Below, piece after piece: positions 2,590 to 15,430 of a DNA stretch of 32,000 bases. The DNA comes from an archaeon (GTDB lineage Archaea > Iainarchaeota > Iainarchaeia > Iainarchaeales > CSSED10-239). A program made the translations under genes and the position numbers. The notes beneath the pieces are model-generated. The model saw only the letters and a program-made list of their open reading frames with translations. It made no database searches and was not told the DNA's origin. Position 1 is the stretch's first letter; each line of letters begins with the position of its first letter. Location of the stretch: the NCBI GenBank assembly GCA_041657425.1, contig JBBABY010000003.1, forward strand, positions 30,001-62,000, given 5' to 3'.

Positions 2590-2766
2590 ATGAAAGAAGA
2601 GTTGTTAGGAACGGGAATTTTAATTTCTTTATTATCTGCCGTTTTTGCAGGATGTCTTGGGGGAGTCACGGGCATTATTATTCATTCATTTATTGCTGGT
2701 ATCCTTTTAGCAATTACAGTCGGAACATTAATGTTATTTGTAGAGGGGTCTCCTATCTATGCCTGA
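2590..2766 (+). CDS. small Gly-rich transmembrane protein (paralog of 2170..2361)
   Basis: An internal ATG of ORF 2488..2766 gives MKEELLGTGILISLLSAVFAGCLGGVTGIIIHSFIAGILL. This matches the AG..GG..G.I..S.IA pattern of 2170..2361. Confidence 0.5.
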   Translation: MKEELLGTGILISLLSAVFAGCLGGVTGIIIHSFIAGILLAITVGTLMLFVEGSPIYA

Positions 2767-5700
2767 TCTCTGCTTAACTCAAGCCGAATACTCCTTCCAT
2801 AACAACTCTCCTGTCATTAACATCTTCGGTCGTGACTCCTCCGGTGTTTCTCATCGTGTGGATGTGGTTGGTTTCAAACCTTATTTTTTTGTTCCCGCAT
2901 CAGAATCCCCCAAAGCAACACCACCCTCCGAAGTTGATTCAAATGAATATTTTTCCATTCTCCATGAACCTTTGGTGAAAGTCATTACTCAAAAACCCGG
3001 TGACATTTTTGAATCGCGCGAGAAGTTTTCTAAACACTATGAAGCGGATATTTTATACACATTGAGGTTTCTGATTGATACAAAAATAAAATCTGGTTTC
3101 TCTTATACACAATCACCATGCACGATTGACGACATATTATTCAAAGATTTAAACTATCCCGCGCGCGTTTGTATTGTGGATATTGAATGTTCTGATGAAC
3201 GCGGGTTCCCGGATGCAACGAAAGATCCAATTTTTTGCATTACTTGTCATGATAGTTTTACAAATCGTTATATTACATTTGTTGTCGCTACTTCACCTCT
3301 TATAGAAACACCTAAAGAGAACGGGTGCTTTGATCCCGCTCACCACGACGTTATAACATACACGGATGAAAAATCTCTTCTTGTGGATTTTTGTGAATAT
3401 ATCAAATCCACAGATCCGGATATTATTACGGGGTGGAACTGCGTTCCAGAAGATACAATGGTTGACACAAAAAACGGTCTTATACCAATTAAGGCATTAA
3501 TACCGGGTATTGTTTTAAACACAGGTGGAAAAGTTGTATCCGTTTATAATACGGGGGTTAAGAATACAACTCGTATAAGAACATCTATTGGATGGGATTT
3601 TATTGTTGGGGAAGATCATCGAATGTTAGTTTCTCAAATTCCACAAGATCGTCATTATGTGTGGGAACATTGCGAAAACTATGAACCAACATACGAAATT
3701 TCTAAAAATATAACTTCTGATAGTATATTGCATATTCCAATACGGCAGTATGAAAATAATATTGGTCTCGGGCTTGATCCTTTTAATTGTTACAGGGCTG
3801 GACTTATTTATTCCGATGGCGCCAGACCAGATAAGTGGAGATTTAGATTTTACAATAAAAATATAAACCTCATTAATAGATGTTGCGGGGAAAACCATAG
3901 ATGGTTTACAAAAGGTGTCTGGTGTTCTAATATATTGCAGCGAGATCTAAAAGGGGCAGAACATCTCATTCTGGTTGGTGATAAGAAACAACTCAATTTT
4001 GGTTTATTATCTCGTCTATCTGTAGAAGAGTTCGGGGCTTTTTTAGCTGGATGGTATGATGGCGATGGGTATTCAGATGTCTTTTGTATAGGAGATCATA
4101 CTATTAATATTCGGCATTTTCAGTTATTTGCAGGATTTGGTGCGATAACTTCATCTACATGTAATATAAATTTACGGATCTTATGTATAACCCAAAAACT
4201 ATTAGAGTGTATGAAAAAGTTTTTGCAGAAGAAAATAAAAAATAAAATCCATATAATTAAGAGAAAACGAGTTACTAGGAAAGATCATTTCAGATTTAAT
4301 TTTAATAGAAATCTAACTAATATGTATCTGCGGGTAAAAAATGTAAGTAACGACGTGCCTAAAAATTGCTACGATATTGAAACGACAGAACATAATTTTT
4401 CGATTGGTTGCGTTGTACATAATTGTAATGAATTTGATATACCTTACATTCTGGGTCGTATGGATGTATTAGGTATCCCGCGCGATGCGTGGTCGCGGTT
4501 GCCTAGTGGAAACACCGGGCGCATAGAAATCAAAGGTCGTCAACTTTTTGATTTATTATCCGGGTATAAAAGAATGCATTTGGGTGAACAACCTTCTTAT
4601 CGCCTTGATGCAATAGCATTAGAAGAATTGGGGAAACAAAAAATCCATCACAATGGAAAGGTTTTCGATTTATGGAAAGAAGATCCTACCAATCTGGTTT
4701 ACTATAACTTCACTGATGTGGAATTATGTGTAGGTATTAATGCAAAAGACGAAACTGTTGAATTCCACAGGTATGTTGCTCATTATGCCGGGTGTCCTCT
4801 GGAAAAGACAACAAATAGTATGCCTATTATTGATATGTTGGTTTTGAGAGAAGCAAAAGAAAATGGGTTTATTTTACCTTCAAAGGCAAATTCTATAAAT
4901 ACACAAGAATCGTTTGAAGGGGCTACGGTTATTGCTCCCATGCGCGGAGTGCAAGAAAACGTTGCTGTTTTGGATGCTAAATCATTGTATCCAATGTCGA
5001 TGATGACTATTAATGCATCTCCAGAAACCAAAGATCCAAAAGGAGAACTGCGCGCTCCTAATGGTGTCAGATTTAAAAAAGAACCCGATGGATTGGTTAG
5101 AAAGATTCAGGCGAAATTTTTACGTGAACGAGATGAGATGAAAAAGGAACGGAATAAGTATCCTTTTGATTCTCGTGAGTATAAACTTTTAAATATGAAA
5201 CAGGACGTGGTTAAGGTTTGCATGAATTCTTATTATGGGGTTTCGGCAAATCCGATGTTCCGTCTTAATGACCGTGACGTGGGTTCGGCTATTACATCAG
5301 TAGGGCGCGCGCTTTTGGAGCACAACAAAAAACTTGTAGAACACGAAGAATATAAAATTGTTTTTGGTGATACCGATTCGGTTGGTATAAAGATACCAAA
5401 AAGTATTGGGAAAGAAGGAACTATGTTTATTGCGAAGGAACTTGAAACGCTTCTTAATAACTCATATCCACAGTTTGCAAAAGAAACATTAAATGCCGAT
5501 GTTCAATATTTCTCCGTGAAATTTGAAAAATTATACCAGAGATTTTTTAGCGGCGGGAAGAAGAAGCGATACGCTGGACTCCTTATTTGGAAGGAAGGTG
5601 TAGACGCGCATAAAATTGATATTGTGGGTTTTGAAACCAAGCGGTCGGATTCCCCCAAGGTCACACGTGACGCAATGAAAACACTTATCGAGATGGTTCT

Positions 5701-6130
5701 TGAGGGCAAACCTTATGAAGAAATCAGAACTACTATTTCGGATGTTATACGTAAATACCGCGCGGGTAAATATAGTCTCGACGATGTAGGAATTCCCGGC
5801 GGCATTGGTAAACCATTGGAAGAATATGATATCCAAGATGCGCAGGTGCGCGCGGCGGTGTATTCTAACACTTATCTGGGAACGAATTTTGGTAAGGGGT
5901 CAAAACCGAAACGTTTATATATTAAGAATGTTACTTCAAAATATCCGCGCACGGATGTAGTTTGTTTTGAGTATGCGGATCAAATAGATAGAAACATTTT
6001 TATAGTTGATGTTGATACAATGTTAGAGAAGACTTTAAAGACTCCGTTATCACGGATTATGGAACCGTTGAATTTCAACTGGTGCGAGTTTGACCCGGCG
6101 ACTCCGACGTTGGGGAAGTGGGGTTTTTAG
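2759..6130 (+). CDS. polB: family B DNA polymerase (archaeo-eukaryotic type) containing one intein
   Basis: Exo I VDIECSD. Exo II GWN/(intein)/CNEFDIPYIL. Exo III YNFTDVEL. Motif A LDAKSLYPMSMM. Motif B KVCMNSYYG. Motif C FGDTDSV. KKRYAG is also present. The extein is 795 aa. Confidence 0.95.
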   Translation: MPDLCLTQAEYSFHNNSPVINIFGRDSSGVSHRVDVVGFKPYFFVPASESPKATPPSEVDSNEYFSILHEPLVKVITQKPGDIFESREKFSKHYEADILYTLRFLIDTKIKSGFSYTQSPCTIDDILFKDLNYPARVCIVDIECSDERGFPDATKDPIFCITCHDSFTNRYITFVVATSPLIETPKENGCFDPAHHDVITYTDEKSLLVDFCEYIKSTDPDIITGWNCVPEDTMVDTKNGLIPIKALIPGIVLNTGGKVVSVYNTGVKNTTRIRTSIGWDFIVGEDHRMLVSQIPQDRHYVWEHCENYEPTYEISKNITSDSILHIPIRQYENNIGLGLDPFNCYRAGLIYSDGARPDKWRFRFYNKNINLINRCCGENHRWFTKGVWCSNILQRDLKGAEHLILVGDKKQLNFGLLSRLSVEEFGAFLAGWYDGDGYSDVFCIGDHTINIRHFQLFAGFGAITSSTCNINLRILCITQKLLECMKKFLQKKIKNKIHIIKRKRVTRKDHFRFNFNRNLTNMYLRVKNVSNDVPKNCYDIETTEHNFSIGCVVHNCNEFDIPYILGRMDVLGIPRDAWSRLPSGNTGRIEIKGRQLFDLLSGYKRMHLGEQPSYRLDAIALEELGKQKIHHNGKVFDLWKEDPTNLVYYNFTDVELCVGINAKDETVEFHRYVAHYAGCPLEKTTNSMPIIDMLVLREAKENGFILPSKANSINTQESFEGATVIAPMRGVQENVAVLDAKSLYPMSMMTINASPETKDPKGELRAPNGVRFKKEPDGLVRKIQAKFLRERDEMKKERNKYPFDSREYKLLNMKQDVVKVCMNSYYGVSANPMFRLNDRDVGSAITSVGRALLEHNKKLVEHEEYKIVFGDTDSVGIKIPKSIGKEGTMFIAKELETLLNNSYPQFAKETLNADVQYFSVKFEKLYQRFFSGGKKKRYAGLLIWKEGVDAHKIDIVGFETKRSDSPKVTRDAMKTLIEMVLEGKPYEEIRTTISDVIRKYRAGKYSLDDVGIPGGIGKPLEEYDIQDAQVRAAVYSNTYLGTNFGKGSKPKRLYIKNVTSKYPRTDVVCFEYADQIDRNIFIVDVDTMLEKTLKTPLSRIMEPLNFNWCEFDPATPTLGKWGF
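3440..4423 (+). mobile_element. 328-aa intein with LAGLIDADG homing endonuclease domain inside polB
   Basis: It starts CVPEDTMV, has block B GEDH, and ends CVVHN followed by the +1 Cys (CNEFD). Two LAGLIDADG motifs are present: RAGLIYSDGA and FLAGWYDGDGY. It interrupts the ITGWN....FDIPY Exo II motif. Confidence 0.85.
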
Positions 6131-6260: not shown

Positions 6261-6342
6261 TGGTGGATACCCGAGCGGTCAAAGGGGCCGGATTCAAAAT
6301 CCGGTGTTTAGTGCTTCGAGGGTTCAAATCCCTCTCCACCAA
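6261..6342 (+). tRNA. tRNA-Leu(CAA), class II
   Basis: Acceptor tggtgga/tccacca. D stem ccc/ggg. Anticodon stem ccgga/tccgg with loop ttCAAaa. 13-nt variable arm. T arm gaggg-ttcaaat-ccctc. No encoded CCA. Confidence 0.85.
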
Positions 6343-6494
6343 TTGTAGAAATATTTAAATACTATTACAACATACACTATTATATATCATGACAGTAAAT
6401 ATAAACGTATCAACATCTATTCTATCATTGCGTTTACTGTCCAGTTTGACGCTTCTCACCACATCGTGAGGGTGTTTTGTATTGGTTTCATCTT

Positions 6495-6582
6495 GCTGCC
6501 TTGGGCGAGTCTGGTTTATGCCGCAATTCTGCTAAAGTTGCTTTCCTGATCGGAAACGAAAGTTCAAATCTTTCAGGCAGCG
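6495..6582 (+). tRNA. tRNA-Ser(GCU), class II
   Basis: Acceptor gctgcct/aggcagc. D stem ggc/gcc. Anticodon stem caatt/agttg with loop ctGCTaa. 17-nt variable arm with ttcc/ggaa stem. T arm gaaag-ttcaaat-ctttc. Confidence 0.85.
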
Positions 6583-6584
6583 TC

Positions 6585-6660
6585 GCCGGATAAGCATCTG
6601 TTGGTTTGGTGCATTCGATCTGTAATCGAAAGGGCGGGAGTTCAATTCTCTCATCCGGCT
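6585..6660 (+). tRNA. tRNA-Thr(UGU), class I, C at position 33
   Basis: Acceptor gccggat/atccggc. D stem gcat/gtgc. Anticodon stem ttcga/tcgaa with loop tcTGTaa. T arm gggag-ttcaatt-ctctc. Positions 8-9 are AA. Confidence 0.7.
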
Positions 6661-6669
6661 CATATTATT

Positions 6670-6754
6670 GCCAACGTGGGGAGTGCGGTGCGCTAAACGG
6701 TCCTGAAAACCGTCGCCCTTAACAGGGTTGCAGGTTCAATTCCTGTCGTTGGCG
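6670..6754 (+). tRNA. tRNA-Ser(UGA)-like, class II, irregular D arm, C33
   Basis: Acceptor gccaacg/cgttggc. Anticodon stem acggt/accgt with loop ccTGAaa. Long variable arm. T arm gcagg-ttcaatt-cctgt. I could not fold the D arm canonically. Confidence 0.6.
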
Positions 6755-6803
6755 TCCTCTTACATAGGGGAAAGTATAAATGATTTGAAAACATATAAGT
6801 TAT

Positions 6804-6887
6804 GTGTGAATGGGACAGCACGGTTGACTCCACTGGATCGAGGTTCCAGACAAGGAAACGACGCAAGTTCAAATCTTGCTTCACACA
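6804..6887 (+). tRNA. tRNA-Leu(GAG), class II, C33
   Basis: Acceptor gtgtgaa/ttcacac. D stem gga/tcc. Anticodon stem ctgga/tccag with loop tcGAGgt. 13-nt variable arm. T arm gcaag-ttcaaat-cttgc. Confidence 0.75.
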
Positions 6888-6889
6888 TC

Positions 6890-6974
6890 GCGTCCGTGGC
6901 GAAACGGTTGAACGCAACAGTCTTAAACACTGTGACGAAGCGAAACATTTCAGGTTCAAATCCTGACGGACGCA
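6890..6974 (+). tRNA. tRNA-Leu(UAA), class II
   Basis: Acceptor gcgtccg/cggacgc. D stem gcg/cgc. Anticodon stem acagt/actgt with loop ctTAAac. 16-nt variable arm. T arm tcagg-ttcaaat-cctga. Confidence 0.85.
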
Positions 6975-8146: not shown

Positions 8147-9019
8147 TTACTTCTTTTTAAAATATTCTTTTGGTAATATTTGCAACCCATATTTTTGGTG
8201 ATGATTCATATGGGATTCTTTGAACATTGTTATACCATTATCTATATCCCACAATTCTTCACACTTTAATGAATCTTCTATTGTTTTAATATTATATTTT
8301 TGTATTATTATTGATAACGGTTTAATATGGTGTACTTCTAAATTGTGGTTCCCTATAATACCAGTAAAACAATCGCAGAAGTTATCACGTTTCATGACAT
8401 TATATCTCCATATATACATTTCCGGAAGTGCTCTTATTGCTTTTTCTAATGTTGATATACCACCCTTCCAATTATGATTATGTTCACCACTCATATTTTT
8501 TCTTGCTTCCATTGATTTGGGTTTATTTTTAAGTGCTTTACTAATTTTTTCTCCGGTTCCATTAGGCATACTCTGTCCTTTATTCCACGCTTCTTGTCCT
8601 GCGTGAGCAATACTCATAAGATTTCGTGTGTGTTGTGAAGCGGTTTTCCCTAGATGTGCAAGTCTGTTCTTTTCTGTAGATTCTGAAGTTATATGTGGGA
8701 TTTGACCCTTGTGTGATTCTGACAAATGTTGTTTGTGCGATTCTGTTAAGGGAATATTTTTCTTTTTTGCACTCATTTTATCTTTTGCAGATTGAGTATG
8801 CGGGATACCAAGATTCCAAGGAATGCGCCCTTTCATAGATTTGCTTAAATTTTCACAATGCTCCTTTGTAAATGGTTTCTTCGGTTTATTTTTCTGCGAT
8901 TTACTCATTTTATCCCGCGATGATTGTGAAGGATGCTTATCAGTATGTGCTTCACGATTCTTTCTTATCCATTCATTATATTTTGCGGGGTCTTTTGGTG
9001 GCGGCATTTGTTTTTTCAC
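8147..9019 (-). CDS. HNH homing endonuclease with N-terminal NUMOD3-like repeats
   Basis: The C-terminus has HNLEVHHIKP...NGITMFKESHMNHH (HNH). Upstream are at least 4 repeats of the type S.E.K.K.S.S.KG (NUMOD3-like). Confidence 0.85.
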   Translation of the reverse strand: MKKQMPPPKDPAKYNEWIRKNREAHTDKHPSQSSRDKMSKSQKNKPKKPFTKEHCENLSKSMKGRIPWNLGIPHTQSAKDKMSAKKKNIPLTESHKQHLSESHKGQIPHITSESTEKNRLAHLGKTASQHTRNLMSIAHAGQEAWNKGQSMPNGTGEKISKALKNKPKSMEARKNMSGEHNHNWKGGISTLEKAIRALPEMYIWRYNVMKRDNFCDCFTGIIGNHNLEVHHIKPLSIIIQKYNIKTIEDSLKCEELWDIDNGITMFKESHMNHHQKYGLQILPKEYFKKK

Positions 9020-9450
9020 ACTTTAAATTTTGTAGCCACTGCTCCATATCCACATTGGTTGCATTTTGCAGCAGGGGTGTATTTTCCATCAATACTCTTT
9101 TTAGTTCCATTCTTTTTTATATTATTAGAACCACACTTTGGGCATTTCATATCTACCGAAACATGTTCTGTATGTTTCCCAAACATCGGGTTATTTTCTC
9201 CCATTTTAGATTTACTTATATTTTCGCAATGTTCTTTAGTTCGTAGAGGTTTTGGTTTATTTTTTAAAGCGGCACTAATTTTTTTACCAGTTTCATTAGG
9301 CATTTTCTCTCCTTTATTCCACGGTTCTATACCTTTATGCGATTCGCTCATTTTAACGAGAGTGTCTTTTTCTGGATGTTTATTCATATGAGAATTTCTT
9401 TGTCTCTCCAACCAAAGCGCGTGTTTTATAGGGTCTTTTGGTGCTACCAT
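9016..9450 (-). CDS. NUMOD3-repeat protein with C-terminal zinc ribbon (paralog of the N-terminus of 8147..9019)
   Basis: APKDPIKHALWLERQRNSHMNKHPEK parallels PPKDPAKYNEWIRKNREAHTDKHPSQ. It has a CPKCG...CNQCG ribbon and no HNH motif. It makes an ATGA overlap with the next gene. Confidence 0.7.
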   Translation of the reverse strand: MVAPKDPIKHALWLERQRNSHMNKHPEKDTLVKMSESHKGIEPWNKGEKMPNETGKKISAALKNKPKPLRTKEHCENISKSKMGENNPMFGKHTEHVSVDMKCPKCGSNNIKKNGTKKSIDGKYTPAAKCNQCGYGAVATKFKV

Positions 9451-11551: not shown

Positions 11552-11773
11552 TTAAACCCCCTCTAAAAACCTCTCATAATCACTCTTCGAAAACCCATCC
11601 GTGATATTAATGTGCTCCCATTTGACATTCAATCCATAGAGACCACCTATTTTGTAGTATGAAGTAACGATGCCATAGTCACCGATATTAATATCAGCGA
11701 ATGGCGCGAGTGCCTTGACGTGATGATTGATTTTTGTTTTTGCTTCGGGTAGGGTGAAGTAGGTTTTGGACAT
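11552..11773 (-). CDS. hypothetical protein
   Basis: 73-aa ORF. Its start overlaps the upstream stop by 1 nt. Confidence 0.55.
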   Translation of the reverse strand: MSKTYFTLPEAKTKINHHVKALAPFADINIGDYGIVTSYYKIGGLYGLNVKWEHINITDGFSKSDYERFLEGV

Positions 11774-12009
11774 TAAGATTCCTCATCATAAGGTGTATTA
11801 TTTAATTCAAGATATCTTGTAATTATTTCGTCGGATTGACTCAATCGTCCAAAATAATGATGCCGGCCTTTATAAATATAACCTTCGTCTCCGCTATAAT
11901 TGTGTTGATCGATCATTGTTTCAAACAATTTCTTATCGGGTATTTCATCTTTGTCAACTACGAAAGATGATGAAGAACTATTACTAACGAAACCAAATCT
12001 AATTTTCAT
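11773..12009 (-). CDS. SNSSSSSF-motif paralog 4 (78 aa)
   Basis: It starts MKIRFGFVSNSSSSSFVV at an internal ATG that overlaps the stop of paralog 3 (TAATG). Confidence 0.7.
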   Translation of the reverse strand: MKIRFGFVSNSSSSSFVVDKDEIPDKKLFETMIDQHNYSGDEGYIYKGRHHYFGRLSQSDEIITRYLELNNTPYDEES

Positions 12010-12344
12010 TATCCATTCCTCCACGATGCTTCCAATGTTTCTACCGCGTGCGGTTTAATTTTGAAATTATTGCAAATAATATCACATCCGGTTTGCGCGC
12101 GCTGTAGGAATTGTCGCCTTGTTTCATCCATTTCGATCTTGTCGTAACTTATACCGATATAATAACCACAATCATCGAATGGGCAATGCTTTTCAAAATC
12201 TTTGAGTTCTGCGTGTTTCTTTTGCATATGTTCAAGCCAATCATAATCATCTTCAAATTCTTTCGGGATTTCACCAATAATGATCCCTGCAATAAGGAAT
12301 GAAGACGATGAACTGTTACTCACAAATCCAAGTCGTGTTTTCAT
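12009..12344 (-). CDS. SNSSSSSF-motif paralog 3 (111 aa)
   Basis: It starts MKTRLGFVSNSSSSSFLIAG and directly abuts paralog 2. Confidence 0.75.
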   Translation of the reverse strand: MKTRLGFVSNSSSSSFLIAGIIIGEIPKEFEDDYDWLEHMQKKHAELKDFEKHCPFDDCGYYIGISYDKIEMDETRRQFLQRAQTGCDIICNNFKIKPHAVETLEASWRNG

Positions 12345-12614
12345 TCAATCATCCCATTTTACTATATTATCATCAATACCAATCATGGATAAAAATTCTC
12401 TCATGTCGAAGTTATCCATGCTGGTAAATCCATATACAAAGAGTTCATCTTCGTGTATATTCCACACATCATATTTATCACAGCCGCTTCTTTTGAAATA
12501 TAAATTGGTTTCGTGATTTTTAATAGCATCGATTTGCAATTCATTCAAAAATTGTTTACTTATAATGAATGAACTGCTACTCGAATTTGAGATGAAACCG
12601 TGTCGTGTTTTCAT
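12345..12614 (-). CDS. SNSSSSSF-motif paralog 2 (89 aa)
   Basis: The internal ATG of ORF 12345..12686 gives MKTRHGFISNSSSSSFIIS. It begins 8 nt after the stop of paralog 1. Confidence 0.7.
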   Translation of the reverse strand: MKTRHGFISNSSSSSFIISKQFLNELQIDAIKNHETNLYFKRSGCDKYDVWNIHEDELFVYGFTSMDNFDMREFLSMIGIDDNIVKWDD

Positions 12615-12622
12615 GATACACC

Positions 12623-13198
12623 TCAATGATTTGAAATTATAATACAAGGAATCATCTTCCAATGATCCCCGTGTTCCATTTGACACATGAAATCCCCATC
12701 GTTATCCGAATATGATATATCATAGAGAATAAACCTTTCATCCATTTCACGAACGAGAGATTGCACCATCAGAGTGTTCCACGTTCTACCGGCAGATTTC
12801 ATTTTCTTTATAACTTTTTCGCGCTCATCGGGTTCAAAATTATATCCGTGGTTGTGCGGGTCGCAACAAGTATCTACAAATTTATATGTAAACATTGATG
12901 TATCTGGTTGTGTTCCGCCCTTCGTGTAAGAAACGAGATATTTTTCTACCTTATTCAACTCACATAGCTCTTTAAGATGAACATCATCCCATACACGCTT
13001 AAGACATTCACGGTATGTATAGGGATAGTTGGGTTCTGTGATATTAAGATCGATTTTTGTTTCGTCGCGTGTAAAGAGTCCTTCCCAATTAAATAATCCC
13101 TTTTCGCACCATTCTTCGAATGTTTTGCATTCGGGATCGATGCCTACGATGAATGAGCTGCTTGACGAGTTTGAAACAAACCCACTTCTAGTCTTCAT
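12623..13198 (-). CDS. SNSSSSSF-motif paralog 1 (191 aa)
   Basis: It starts MKTRSGFVSNSSSSSFIVG. It makes an ATGA overlap with the stop of the radical SAM C-fragment. Confidence 0.75.
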   Translation of the reverse strand: MKTRSGFVSNSSSSSFIVGIDPECKTFEEWCEKGLFNWEGLFTRDETKIDLNITEPNYPYTYRECLKRVWDDVHLKELCELNKVEKYLVSYTKGGTQPDTSMFTYKFVDTCCDPHNHGYNFEPDEREKVIKKMKSAGRTWNTLMVQSLVREMDERFILYDISYSDNDGDFMCQMEHGDHWKMIPCIIISNH

Positions 13199-14004
13199 GA
13201 TTTTTTACCTCCAAATTCAAGATTAAATAATGGGCAATTTCTACACCCGTTTTTATCTTTGTTCCCGATAACCGATGATCGGAAACGGTTAAATTGTTCA
13301 TTGTTCCATACATCTGTAGTAAAGTCGTTGATATTAAGCATATCGATTCCGGTGTATCCACATTCGTTTTCGCTAAACGAGCATGGATATGCTTTTCCTT
13401 CAACATTAATATACATGCTGAATAACGTAGATTCACACGGTTCAATGCTTTCTACGTGTTCGGGCATAAGAGCCATCACTTTTGGTGCGCTGCACGAGTC
13501 AAACCCAAATCTCACGTTGTTGGATTTTAATACGTTCATAAGTTCTTTGTAATGTGCTTCAGAAACCGAGTGTAGGCTGTTTCTATCACCTTTTGGTTTC
13601 AACCACAGGAATACTACAGCGTTAAGATAACGGGCGAGCAATGGGTCATTGCGAGCCTTGTGCACGATGTTCATACACTTATCAAATGTCTCTTCTGATA
13701 AGAGGCAGTGGATGTTGACCTGTGATAATCCACGATTGCCAAGTTCGGTGATTGCAGTGCGGCATGTTTCGTAATCATACAGGGAAACGGCAACAGCGCC
13801 ACATAGAGAAGACAATTTTTCATAATCTGTAGGGGTCATACGGGAACCGTTGATCGTGATGTTTGGAATAACACCATTGTTCCGACAATGTTGCATAATG
13901 GAATATAGATCCGGATTAGTAAGTATATATTCTTTTTTATATTCGTATATATTTTGTTCTTTCATGTATTCATTTTCACCAATAATTTCCCATTCCCCAT
14001 TCAT
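13195..14004 (-). CDS. radical SAM enzyme, C-terminal fragment with SPASM/twitch-type auxiliary-cluster domain
   Basis: It has a TIM-barrel continuation (NPDLYSIM...ITINGS). CESTLFSMYINVEGKAYPC fits CX9-15GX4C, and CRNC follows. It lacks the CxxxCxxC motif, which lies in 14639..14983. Confidence 0.85.
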   Translation of the reverse strand: MNGEWEIIGENEYMKEQNIYEYKKEYILTNPDLYSIMQHCRNNGVIPNITINGSRMTPTDYEKLSSLCGAVAVSLYDYETCRTAITELGNRGLSQVNIHCLLSEETFDKCMNIVHKARNDPLLARYLNAVVFLWLKPKGDRNSLHSVSEAHYKELMNVLKSNNVRFGFDSCSAPKVMALMPEHVESIEPCESTLFSMYINVEGKAYPCSFSENECGYTGIDMLNINDFTTDVWNNEQFNRFRSSVIGNKDKNGCRNCPLFNLEFGGKKS

Positions 14005-14642
14005 AATTTTTTCCTCCTATTAATACACGGTGGTCTCATAACAACATGTCTTTTCTTTAAAACATTATTTACTTTTTTCTTGCCAATATTTAGAACCTTT
14101 GCAATTTTAAAAATACCATATATTTTATATAAATTTACTATTTCATCTTCCAATTCACTCGTCAAATGAATGGAATTGGCATTACTTATTTCCATTTTTG
14201 TTTTTTCCGAATGTGTTTTTCCGAAAAATGAATTTTTTTCTCCAACTCTTTTTTTACCGCAGTTGGATATTATTTGTTTCTGTGAATCTGGTAAATGTTT
14301 ACCATACATATGATTTTTATCGCCCTTGTGACTTTCCCCCATTTTTAATCTTGTTGTTTCTGATGGGAAAACACCAAGTTTTCCAGACCCACCCAATGCT
14401 ATATTATATCCAACATTTAAATTTGTAGAATTAAAATGTGTAATCCAGTATTGTTCTTTTTCATTTAATTCTTCTTGTGTTTTACAATATTCCAAAATCT
14501 CCTTTTTAAAATTATGTTTACCGTATTTTCCCACAGCGTTTTTTATTAAAATGCCCGAACCCAAATATAGTGGTCTGTTTTTGGTGTCTTGACCAATATA
14601 TATTTTATTATTAATCAAATTTGTTATTTTATAAATAATCAT
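14001..14642 (-). CDS. GIY-YIG homing endonuclease (I-TevI/Seg-like) with NUMOD3 repeats and C-terminal HTH
   Basis: IIYKITNLINNKIYIGQD...YWI...GYNI (GIY-YIG). Repeats SETTRLKMGESHKG and HSEKTKMEIS. The C-terminus is IFKIAKVLNIGKKKVNNVL. ATGA overlaps occur at both ends. Confidence 0.9.
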   Translation of the reverse strand: MIIYKITNLINNKIYIGQDTKNRPLYLGSGILIKNAVGKYGKHNFKKEILEYCKTQEELNEKEQYWITHFNSTNLNVGYNIALGGSGKLGVFPSETTRLKMGESHKGDKNHMYGKHLPDSQKQIISNCGKKRVGEKNSFFGKTHSEKTKMEISNANSIHLTSELEDEIVNLYKIYGIFKIAKVLNIGKKKVNNVLKKRHVVMRPPCINRRKKL

Positions 14643-14983
14643 TTCCTTCTCCTAAAGTATACAATGTTATTTATTGATCCTATTCCAAATGCCACCTGCG
14701 TAATTGTGTTAGGTAATTTGGAGAACACTGTTTTAAACGTCTTCAAATCCATGTAAGTTCCATCACACGTATTTGACTTATAGCAGAATTTGCATCCGTG
14801 GTTACAGATTGTTGAAATTTCAATATCTGCGATTTCGGGTGAAGGCGCGCATTCGGGGTCGTCATCAAATGTTGCGCCCCACCGTGAAAATGCGCCGTTG
14901 ATTTTATTGAAGATGAAATTGTAATTCGGAGAGATCGCTGATTTTGTTGTTGATGTGTCGATTACTTGCATATTACTCACCAT
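14639..14983 (-). CDS. radical SAM enzyme, N-terminal fragment with the CxxxCxxC cluster motif
   Basis: DIEISTICNHGCKFCY is present. It ends shortly after QVAFGIG, where the GGE-type SAM motif region is expected. Confidence 0.85.
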   Translation of the reverse strand: MVSNMQVIDTSTTKSAISPNYNFIFNKINGAFSRWGATFDDDPECAPSPEIADIEISTICNHGCKFCYKSNTCDGTYMDLKTFKTVFSKLPNTITQVAFGIGSINNIVYFRRRK

Positions 14984-15185
14984 CCATCTCCCCCTTTGCT
15001 TCCTCTTCCTTCTTTATCTCTTTCACAAAGTAATCACGCAGCGTCTTTGTGAAATCATAATCGGCAACCATTAGATCGATTGATTTGATGAAGTCAATGA
15101 TAGATTGATCATCGAGGACGCAGATTTCTTCTACGAGGTCGTCAAGGGCAATTTCGCTGTGGATTGAGAGTTTTTGAATGGGCAT
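14973..15185 (-). CDS. small acidic protein (70 aa)
   Basis: The internal ATG (MPIQKLSIHSEIALDDLVEE...) lies 3 nt after the upstream stop. The product is D/E-rich. Confidence 0.5.
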   Translation of the reverse strand: MPIQKLSIHSEIALDDLVEEICVLDDQSIIDFIKSIDLMVADYDFTKTLRDYFVKEIKKEEEAKGEMDGE

Positions 15186-15187
15186 GG

Positions 15188-15430
15188 TTAATCGCCTTTC
15201 CTCCACAACTCATATTTATCATATTCATCATCTACTACTTCCTCAATTTCCTCTATGGGAAGTTCTCTCGAAGGAGTAATTACAACTTCAAATACAGAAA
15301 ACTCTTCTTCCGGAGCATCCTGATATTTCTTTTTACACCATTCGTTACAAATTTCACTCTTGCTCCCATATCGGACTGGAATGTTCGATCCTTTCCTTGC
15401 AAGAACATATTTTGTGTCTTTCGTGCTCAT
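15188..15430 (-). CDS. hypothetical acidic protein
   Basis: 80-aa ORF. It is the first gene downstream of the class-1 promoter motif at 15458..15491, with GGTGAAAAG upstream. Confidence 0.55.
   Translation of the reverse strand: MSTKDTKYVLARKGSNIPVRYGSKSEICNEWCKKKYQDAPEEEFSVFEVVITPSRELPIEEIEEVVDDEYDKYELWRKGD

Follow-up and report, generated by a model that had tools for sequence, protein, structure and literature searches.

The window analysed here, a stretch of 32,000 nt of contig JBBABY010000003.1 (positions 30,001 to 62,000), carries a phage gene for a radical S-adenosylmethionine (SAM) enzyme with a SPASM domain, which lies in two pieces separated by the gene of a free-standing GIY-YIG homing endonuclease. 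Comparison with related loci indicates that a cassette bearing this endonuclease gene was inserted into the enzyme gene and supplied a stop codon and a short C-terminal tail to the upstream half as well as a Shine-Dalgarno (SD) site, an ATG and an N-terminal leader to the downstream half, and that cassettes of this kind recur and move. Taken as a whole, the locus is likely to encode an enzyme that was split by the cassette and reassembles through the tails which the cassette provides.

The split locus occupies the minus strand (coordinates are those of the whole window) and consists of three consecutive open reading frames (ORFs) arranged head to tail. The gene of the radical SAM N-fragment (14639..14983, 114 aa) contains the cluster motif CNHGCKFCY and ends with ...TQVAFGIG followed by the tail SINNIVYFRRRK, 12 codons at 14642..14677, with the stop at 14639-14641; an alternative start at 14971 (MQVID...) agrees with the N-termini of homologs. 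The gene of the endonuclease, which is free-standing and I-TevI-like, follows at 14001..14642 (213 aa), and the gene of the C-fragment (13195..14004, 269 aa) begins with a leader of 29 codons, MNGEWEIIGENEYMKEQNIYEYKKEYILT (13918..14004), and continues with the remaining barrel and the SPASM domain. The inserted cassette extends over 13918..14677 (760 nt) and comprises tail and stop, the endonuclease gene, and then SD, ATG and leader. An AGGAG (14649..14653) forms the SD upstream of the endonuclease ATG, and an AGGAGG (14013..14018), 8 nt before the ATG of the C-fragment, falls within the gene of the endonuclease, at its 3' end. Neighbouring ORFs overlap by ATGA at 14639-14642 and 14001-14004, and the C-fragment shares a further ATGA (13195-13198) with the next gene downstream. 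These overlaps were considered as a special property of the cassette, which was rejected, as they are common in the operon and missing from some related cassettes; at the 5' junction the related loci L170, L173 and L174 possess a spacer and no overlap. No significant support was obtained for a hairpin masking the ribosome-binding site of the endonuclease, as in mobE of phage Aeh1 (z = -0.43), and a scan for promoters and terminators gave nothing beyond shuffled expectation.

Most of this layout had been described in a sequence-only reading of the window: an N-piece with CNHGCKFCY that stops 12 codons past QVAFGIG, a C-piece with the rest of the barrel and SPASM and without CxxxCxxC, a complete GIY-YIG gene between both halves, ATGA overlaps at either junction, and no space for an intron core. 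All of these points were borne out, the first by the ORF itself, the second by the translation and a Pfam SPASM match above cutoff, the third by the agreement of ORF, Pfam, TIGR01453 and an alignment to I-TevI, the overlaps directly from the sequence, and the last by the short remainder outside the endonuclease ORF and a negative Rfam search, both of which are treated below.

With the concatenated halves as query, 2809 homologs were found, the best 120 of which are without exception single proteins of 327-448 aa (typically ~340 aa). The enzyme is equally uninterrupted in 80 of 80 IMG/VR loci and in 174 of 174 GenBank phages of the Straboviridae type (RB16, KP15, KP27, GAP161, Miller). Their native reading is ...TQ[VI]AFGIG-DIDG-NPDLY..., to which the halves of the window are colinear and match on either side, and nothing in unsplit homologs corresponds to the 12 additional C-terminal and 29 additional N-terminal codons. 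Homology by blastn to L001, the closest uninterrupted relative (84-86% nucleotide identity), stops at 14679 and restarts at 13917, so that the 760-nt insert takes the place of 12 nt of the ancestral gene, GATATTGATGGA, which encode DIDG. Over exactly the interval of the insert the GC content falls from ~0.43 in the flanks to ~0.27. At the protein level the N-fragment is 87-92% identical to the N-terminal part of the unsplit protein P0001, and the C-fragment, from N30 on, is 88-92% identical to the unsplit P0001 and P0125. Judged from these alignments, the insertion point lies somewhere within the four DIDG codons, and the first three residues of the tail, S-I-N in the window and [SDN]-[IL]-[SND] across cassettes, may retain or mimic the native D-I-D.

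The halves are thus not normally separate genes, and their junction codons line up in uninterrupted homologs apart from the gap of 12 nt or four codons, as the sequence-only reading had presupposed; the ancestral state is, on this comparison, one uninterrupted gene. Its further suggestion that the insertion point coincides with a conserved nucleotide stretch, the likely target of the endonuclease, held in part: the junction abuts a 24-nt block (TQVAFGIG) that belongs to the top 5% in conservation among unsplit genes. The stronger version, in which the junction marks the most conserved DNA stretch of the gene, was rejected, since the adjoining block ranks sixth among non-overlapping blocks. A putative target of the endonuclease would be unsplit alleles near the stretch coding for TQVAFGIG/DIDGNPD, ...CAGGTTGCGTTTGGAATCGGTGATATTGATGGAAATCC....

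Family assignment of the endonuclease is consistent across resources. Pfam recognizes GIY-YIG with 28.8 bits (cutoff 22.6) and NUMOD3 with 49.7 bits in two stretches, the NCBIfam model TIGR01453 gives 97.4 bits (cutoff 56) over model positions 4-204 of 215 and endonuclease residues 3-198, and phrog_314, a homing endonuclease family, matches at 7.6e-40. The catalytic domain of I-TevI (1LN0/1MK0) can be aligned, with GIY, YIG and the equivalents of R27, E75 and N90 kept in the motifs IYKI...IYIG, ..KNR.., EKEQYWI and GYNIA. The NUMOD3 repeats are followed by a C-terminal region resembling a helix-turn-helix (HTH), for which Pfam made no call in the window endonuclease and gave just faint HTH_23/HTH_28 matches in the relative at L173. 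By its sequence, the window endonuclease looks intact. Its gene contains a run of seven A (A7, 14249..14255; context GGT-A7-GAGTTGG), which is A8 in L167 (~181-188) and in the distant L175 (reverse strand, ~138-145) and there leads, at one spot in two independent lineages, to a +1 frameshift; the A7/A8 run could mark a place prone to decay, reflect an error in homopolymer sequencing, or act as a slippage site limiting expression of the endonuclease.

Relatives of the cassette were retrieved through a large protein collection and look-ups of the respective contigs and not through the IMG/VR relatives of the endonuclease, as none of the 80 closest of these is flanked by this radical SAM enzyme. 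Four independent assemblies, one of them a contig of 139 kb, contain the window allele itself, with 100% identity over 2.3 kb. A homologous endonuclease with tails at the same site was found in L167, L170, L171 (=L176), L172, L173, L174 (=L177) and L175. All four closest relatives of the endonuclease, P0127 and P0129-P0131 (in L170-L173; 53-58% identity), are situated at this very site of diverged homologs of the enzyme. A degenerate pattern of codons encoding the leader motif recovered L174, L175 and the L171 contig. The exact 29-nt junction pattern found no match among metagenome contigs, and a search with a profile of the leader alignment (A3) yielded two weak matches only, because split fragments cluster under unsplit representatives. 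In GenBank phages, megablast with 13000..15200 returned no match; the phage that carries the split gene of the window is known from metagenomes only. The split enzyme and endonuclease of L172 (GCA_013203645.1, JABMPW010000042.1, 2004 nt) are binned in a metagenome-assembled genome of a 'Parcubacteria group bacterium', and this contig is probably a piece of a phage that ended up in a bacterial genome through mis-binning.

Within this set, evidence for movement of the cassette comes from the comparison of alleles. L167 represents a second split allele, the leader of which differs from that of the window by one change. The last ~260 nt of the two cassettes are identical save one base, and beyond ~13918 identity is ~83%; this boundary was examined at the 3' side, the L167 contig being truncated. 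The body of the window C-fragment is closest to unsplit proteins (P0125 92%, P0001 88%), the best other split allele being L167 with 85%. For L171 the nearest unsplit relative is L099 with 85% and the best other split allele reaches <=59%, and for L174 the corresponding values are 61% (L135) and 48%. Compared with the unsplit L099, L171 contains an insert of 1053 nt, after which homology restarts at the NPD codons (AAT CCT GAT). The sharp step in identity at the 3' edge of the insert together with nearest relatives that are unsplit argues for a mobile cassette, and the polyphyly of split alleles, which are scattered in the gene tree, is in keeping with a cassette that entered different alleles by homing or recombination. 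Most likely, as far as these alignments can tell, cassettes moved between alleles by endonuclease-driven homing or recombination. What is found in the window is, on the same grounds, not a one-off event and belongs to a family of mobile cassettes with at least eight lineages, that of the window included. Gene fission by a free-standing mobile endonuclease, the central claim of the sequence-only reading, is strongly supported by homologs in one piece, the aligned junction, the lack of an intron and the recurrence of the cassette.

As regards the enzyme, the Pfam model Radical_SAM aligns to residues 54-102 of the N-fragment and stays below its cutoff because the fragment is truncated. The three cysteines of the CX3CX2C motif (C60, C64, C67) are invariant in the homolog alignments (A1, A2, A5). 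The N-fragment is composed of an N-terminal beta-rich region, the cluster motif, helix 1 and strand beta2, which ends in FGIG; the C-fragment lacks CX3CX2C and provides, after its leader, helix 2 (NPDLY...), the partial barrel's strands beta3-beta6, and a Cys-rich SPASM/twitch domain (Pfam SPASM, 33.7 bits, cutoff 21.5). A search of the PDB with the enzyme profile found nothing at E<=0.01; in a weak match (E 0.011), FGIG(D) was aligned to AGGE(P), the SAM-binding motif of the radical SAM enzyme 7TOL. In an AlphaFold2 (AF2) model of the halves fused to one chain (predicted local distance difference test, pLDDT, 92.5), strand 96-100, corresponding to beta2, ends at FGIG. From this weak alignment and the position of beta2 in the model, the break would be located 1-4 residues past a GGE-type SAM-binding motif, between beta2 and helix 2. 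Foldseek placed the model nearest to CteB (5WHY), SuiB (5V1T), SkfB (6EFN) and anSME (4K39) with probability 1.0 and TM scores of 0.47-0.65, and the enzyme, whose family is phrog_7293 (annotated 'function unknown'), probably modifies proteins or peptides. A second, different radical SAM gene (5008..5889, 293 aa, CxxxCxxC near the N-terminus) was noticed in L171 ~250 nt downstream of the split one.

The two peptides contributed by the cassette carry opposite charges. The tail of the window has an isoelectric point (pI) of 11.7 and a net charge of +4, its leader a pI of 4.4 and a net charge of -4. Corresponding tails read SLSEEKFYRRKKPK in L170, SISKTYYLRKKIK in L171, DISTTKYYRKKK in L172, SLSTTYYLRRHK in L173 and NLDATIYKRRPKQKV in L174; these five have a pI of 10.0-10.4, and with the window the range is 10.0-11.7 at net charges of +3 to +5. 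Leaders of the window and seven other loci align gap-free from W to NPD with W5, E6, Y13, Y20 and Y22 invariant, and seven of the eight are acidic (pI 4.1-4.6). Synonymous codons vary at the invariant residues (TAT/TAC, GAA/GAG), so that it is the protein which is under constraint. In the AF2 model of the end-to-end fusion, strands are formed at the tail (105-113) and at the leader (120-122, 134-142), where pLDDT is 73-83 with no alignment depth, which is suggestive of tail and leader pairing as a beta-ribbon that projects from the break point. The tails are, across these cassettes, conserved at the protein level and travel with the endonuclease.

A course of events that would account for the locus can be outlined as follows. 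As the sequence comparison shows, the GIY-YIG cassette inserted in a phage radical SAM/SPASM gene gives the upstream half a basic tail and a stop codon by its 5' end, and the downstream half an SD site, an ATG and an acidic leader of 29 codons by its 3' end, and cassettes of this kind recur and move. One operon transcript would then be translated into three proteins, N-piece, endonuclease and C-piece, and the two enzyme pieces would reassemble non-covalently into an active radical SAM enzyme, helped by the oppositely charged tail and leader, which would pair as an intermolecular beta-ribbon. The insertion would thus be near phenotypically neutral, and the cassette could persist and spread. Separate translation and assembly in trans are suggested by SD and ATG on the insert, by halves that remain intact in eight lineages, and by tails that stay conserved at 53-58% endonuclease identity. 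For activity of the two-piece enzyme the strongest argument is the conservation of tails that would make sense only if both halves are produced and put to use.

Several observations weigh against a functional, tail-assembled enzyme. We know of no natural precedent for an active radical SAM core made of two pieces. The Asp that matches the Glu of GGE is Ser in the window, and some unsplit homologs also read GIGSID. The leader of L172, one of eight, is net positive, and the pairing of tail and leader by AF2 was seen in an artificially fused single chain. Some copies of the endonuclease may be decaying, as the +1 frameshift in L167 and L175 implies. Concerning selection, the ratio of non-synonymous to synonymous substitution rates (dN/dS) is 0.03-0.08 for all pairs, two split alleles included, and changes specific to the window lineage amount to 39 synonymous and 14 non-synonymous ones; the low dN/dS may, however, predate the insertion, because the cassette is younger than the divergence of the alleles (dS ~1.6 between window and L167 in the flanks, with an identical cassette 3' end). 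Nor is post-insertion divergence visible, the four contigs with the window allele being 100% identical over their shared 2.3 kb.

Some of these points are shared by the explanation that survives best beside ours, although it is unlikely: the insertion killed the gene, the halves are recent pseudogene fragments still awaiting decay, and the cassette maintains itself only by invading intact alleles again and again. The identity of the window allele in all four contigs would fit this, as would the cassette 3' end, which is far younger than the flank divergence, so that purifying selection cannot be assigned to the time after the split; moreover, a gene of phrog_7293 is accessory, and frameshifted endonuclease copies are expected of a homing cycle of invasion and decay. 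However, phage genomes usually lose dead DNA fast, and both halves are intact ORFs with their own SD/ATG in all eight lineages, wherever visible, while the tails keep their invariant residues and opposite charges under synonymous variation at an endonuclease identity of 53-58%.

Quite unlikely is a second explanation, which accepts functional, separately translated halves and lets the barrel halves associate unaided, the tails serving, for example, to couple the endonuclease translationally or to regulate it, to render the target site self-immune, or to stand in for the DIDG residues that were lost. In its favour, the codons for RRRK in the window tail (AGG AGA AGG AAA) double as the SD of the endonuclease, the first three tail residues [SDN]-[IL]-[SND] mimic native D-I-D, and in Aeh1 the tails are dispensable for heterodimer formation and needed for higher-order assembly and activity (PMC3045599). 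Yet L173 and L174 have a spacer of 58-70 nt between tail and endonuclease SD and a tail that is still basic, which is therefore not merely a by-product of a purine-rich SD; W, E, Y, Y and Y of the leader are conserved at the protein level, and AF2 pairs the leader with the tail.

A splicing element would offer the third way to a continuous product, and searches for one were negative throughout. At gathering thresholds, Rfam reported three tRNAs only for the window; under permissive settings, neither group I nor group II introns came up in 13700..14900 at E<=10, and no intron at E<=1 in the five related loci L167 and L170-L173. Outside the endonuclease ORF just 36 nt and 87 nt are left, and both are kept as peptide. 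Pfam detected no Hint/intein domain in the split pieces, and tail and leader together amount to 41 aa (12 + 29) as against ~135 aa for a Hint domain. A split intein would consist of an N-intein of ~100 aa with Cys/Ser at its start and a C-intein of ~35 aa with HN at its end, followed by Cys/Ser/Thr; the leader ends ILT/NPD without HN and such a residue. In contrast, the DNA polymerase gene of the same window holds an intein with all hallmarks of this type. Neither RNA nor protein splicing appears to take place, and restoration of the product by a group I intron with an endonuclease ORF or by a split intein is highly improbable, even though the NCBI family name of TIGR01453 is 'group I intron endonuclease', fractured genes of phage metagenomes with a GIY-YIG endonuclease between split-intein halves exist (PMC2677866), and a true intein is close by, because no intron model matched, the short remainders are conserved as protein and the N-tail has only 12 aa.

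Among known systems, the closest is that of the Aeromonas phage Aeh1, where in nrdA-a/mobE/nrdA-b an HNH endonuclease split the large subunit of ribonucleotide reductase inside its barrel (Crona et al., 2011, PMC3045599; earlier work by Friedrich et al. on Aeh1 nrdA is cited therein). The NrdA tails, with pI 10.4 and 3.8, are essential for activity, and insertion-derived tails were proposed, from this one case, as a general way to neutralise gene fragmentation (PMC3045599). Both systems share a free-standing homing endonuclease that splits a conserved enzyme gene at the active site, between neighbouring elements of an alpha/beta barrel, an insert of low GC content, an endonuclease gene that overlaps the downstream half, the lack of splicing, and insertion-made tails, of which the N-piece bears the basic and the C-piece the acidic one. 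They differ in endonuclease family, GIY-YIG here and HNH there, and in the host gene, radical SAM/SPASM here and ribonucleotide reductase there. Furthermore, Aeh1 represents one case, ascribed to a one-off transposition, whereas at least eight diverged cassettes at the same site in polyphyletic alleles are found here, and activity was demonstrated in Aeh1 and is predicted here.

Further parallels exist to the 'fractured genes' of Dassa et al. (2009; PMC2677866), in which a split intein together with a free-standing GIY-YIG or Vsr-like endonuclease lies between the halves. According to their model the invading element supplies stop and start, and its path Ia allows fracture of a gene without intein (PMC2677866). 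Common to these and the present locus are halves that keep their order at a single locus and enclose a free-standing GIY-YIG endonuclease, an occurrence mainly in phage metagenomes, the stop of the upstream half and the Met of the downstream half derived from the element, an endonuclease overlapping the downstream ORF, and oppositely charged interface strands. Unlike most features of that set, split intein, Hint blocks and a C-terminal HN/+1 nucleophile are absent here, which matches path Ia. Gene 39/mobA/gene 60 of phage T4 and the split gp43 DNA polymerase genes of some relatives of T4 also comprise two ORFs beside a homing-endonuclease gene with non-covalent assembly of the products, gene 60 using a 50-nt ribosomal bypass in addition (PMC3045599, PMC2677866). 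The charge pattern of the tails in gp39/gp60 is similar to ours, but host genes and endonuclease families are others, and in the window no bypass signal is needed or seen. The endonuclease itself follows I-TevI and the Seg proteins in the sequence of GIY-YIG catalytic domain, NUMOD3 linker and C-terminal DNA-binding region and is free-standing like seg genes; unlike I-TevI, to the catalytic domain of which its similarity is ~20 bits, it is encoded inside a coding region and not in an intron or intergenic spacer.

The splitting of a gene by an endonuclease gene that leaves tails is hence known, and what differs here are the GIY-YIG type, the radical SAM/SPASM host gene and the conserved, mobile lineage of tail-bearing cassettes. 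At least eight copies of the cassette with tails conserved at the protein level lend evolutionary support to the idea of generality put forward by Crona et al., and the natural tail variants, one charge outlier included, form a ready set for experiments. Should the enzyme be active, a cluster-binding piece of 12 kDa and a barrel/SPASM piece of 31 kDa would define a tolerated split point useful for engineering. As currently annotated, such loci consist of an orphan ORF of small size, a 'group I intron endonuclease' and, without cluster motif, a 'SPASM protein'.

Downstream of the C-fragment, at 11773..13198 on the minus strand, four paralogous small genes were observed, each of which starts with MK[TI]RxGF[VI]SNSSSSSF (12623..13198, overlapping the C-fragment stop by ATGA; ~12345..12611; 12009..12344; ~11773..12009). 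ORFs with this motif, one to seven in number and on the same strand as the enzyme, occur in 57 of 81 enzyme loci (L086-L166) and in none of 80 controls of equal total length; further arrays are located at 1699..2880 in L001 and 4185..6200 in L174. Their proteins of 46-250 aa begin with MK[ITV]RxGF[VI]SNSSSSSF and then diverge completely, some with CxxC directly behind the motif. A profile of the motif matched 18,127 representative proteins, in nearly all of them at residue 1; no Pfam family covers the proteins, phrog_7397 ('unknown function') being the only assignment, and a literature search turned up no paper with the motif. Phages with the split gene keep the arrays, with four ORFs in the window and six in L174, and phages of the RB16 type possess the enzyme without motif ORFs. 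Judging from the fold neighbours of the enzyme, which resemble maturases of ribosomally synthesised and post-translationally modified peptides, the motif proteins could be substrates, partners or recognition tags of the enzyme, and the co-occurrence provides a concrete clue to what a widespread family of phage genes does.

If all of this is read jointly, the cassette may be a self-contained module for cutting and re-joining, whose matched beta-strand tails, one basic and one aromatic and acidic, rejoin any allele it invades, the enzyme may be the first natural radical SAM enzyme with a core of two polypeptides broken at the SAM-binding motif, and it may at the same time be the maturase of the MKxRxGFVSNSSSSSF family, a very large and so far undescribed family of phage proteins; for this combination as a whole our confidence is tentative and falls a little short of even.

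Apart from the cassette, the window contains two further insertions of mobile elements, which makes three within 32 kb. The gene of a DNA polymerase B (2759..6130, plus strand) harbours in its exonuclease domain an intein of 328 aa at 3440..4423 (...IITGWN/CVPEDT...LAGWYDGDGY...GCVVHN/CNEFDIPY), with Cys1, a terminal HN, a +1 Cys and a LAGLIDADG motif. It splits the Pfam match of the exonuclease domain, and in tblastn other viral polymerases align in two separate parts; to polymerases of GenBank phages the window polymerase is at most 31-33% identical. On the minus strand, 8147..9019 and 9016..9450 are neighbouring ORFs with many NUMOD3 repeats, of which the downstream one has an HNH domain at its end; 8147..9450 is another gene resembling those of homing endonucleases and may itself lie in two pieces. 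Three tRNA genes are located at 6261..6974 (plus strand), just downstream of the polymerase gene.

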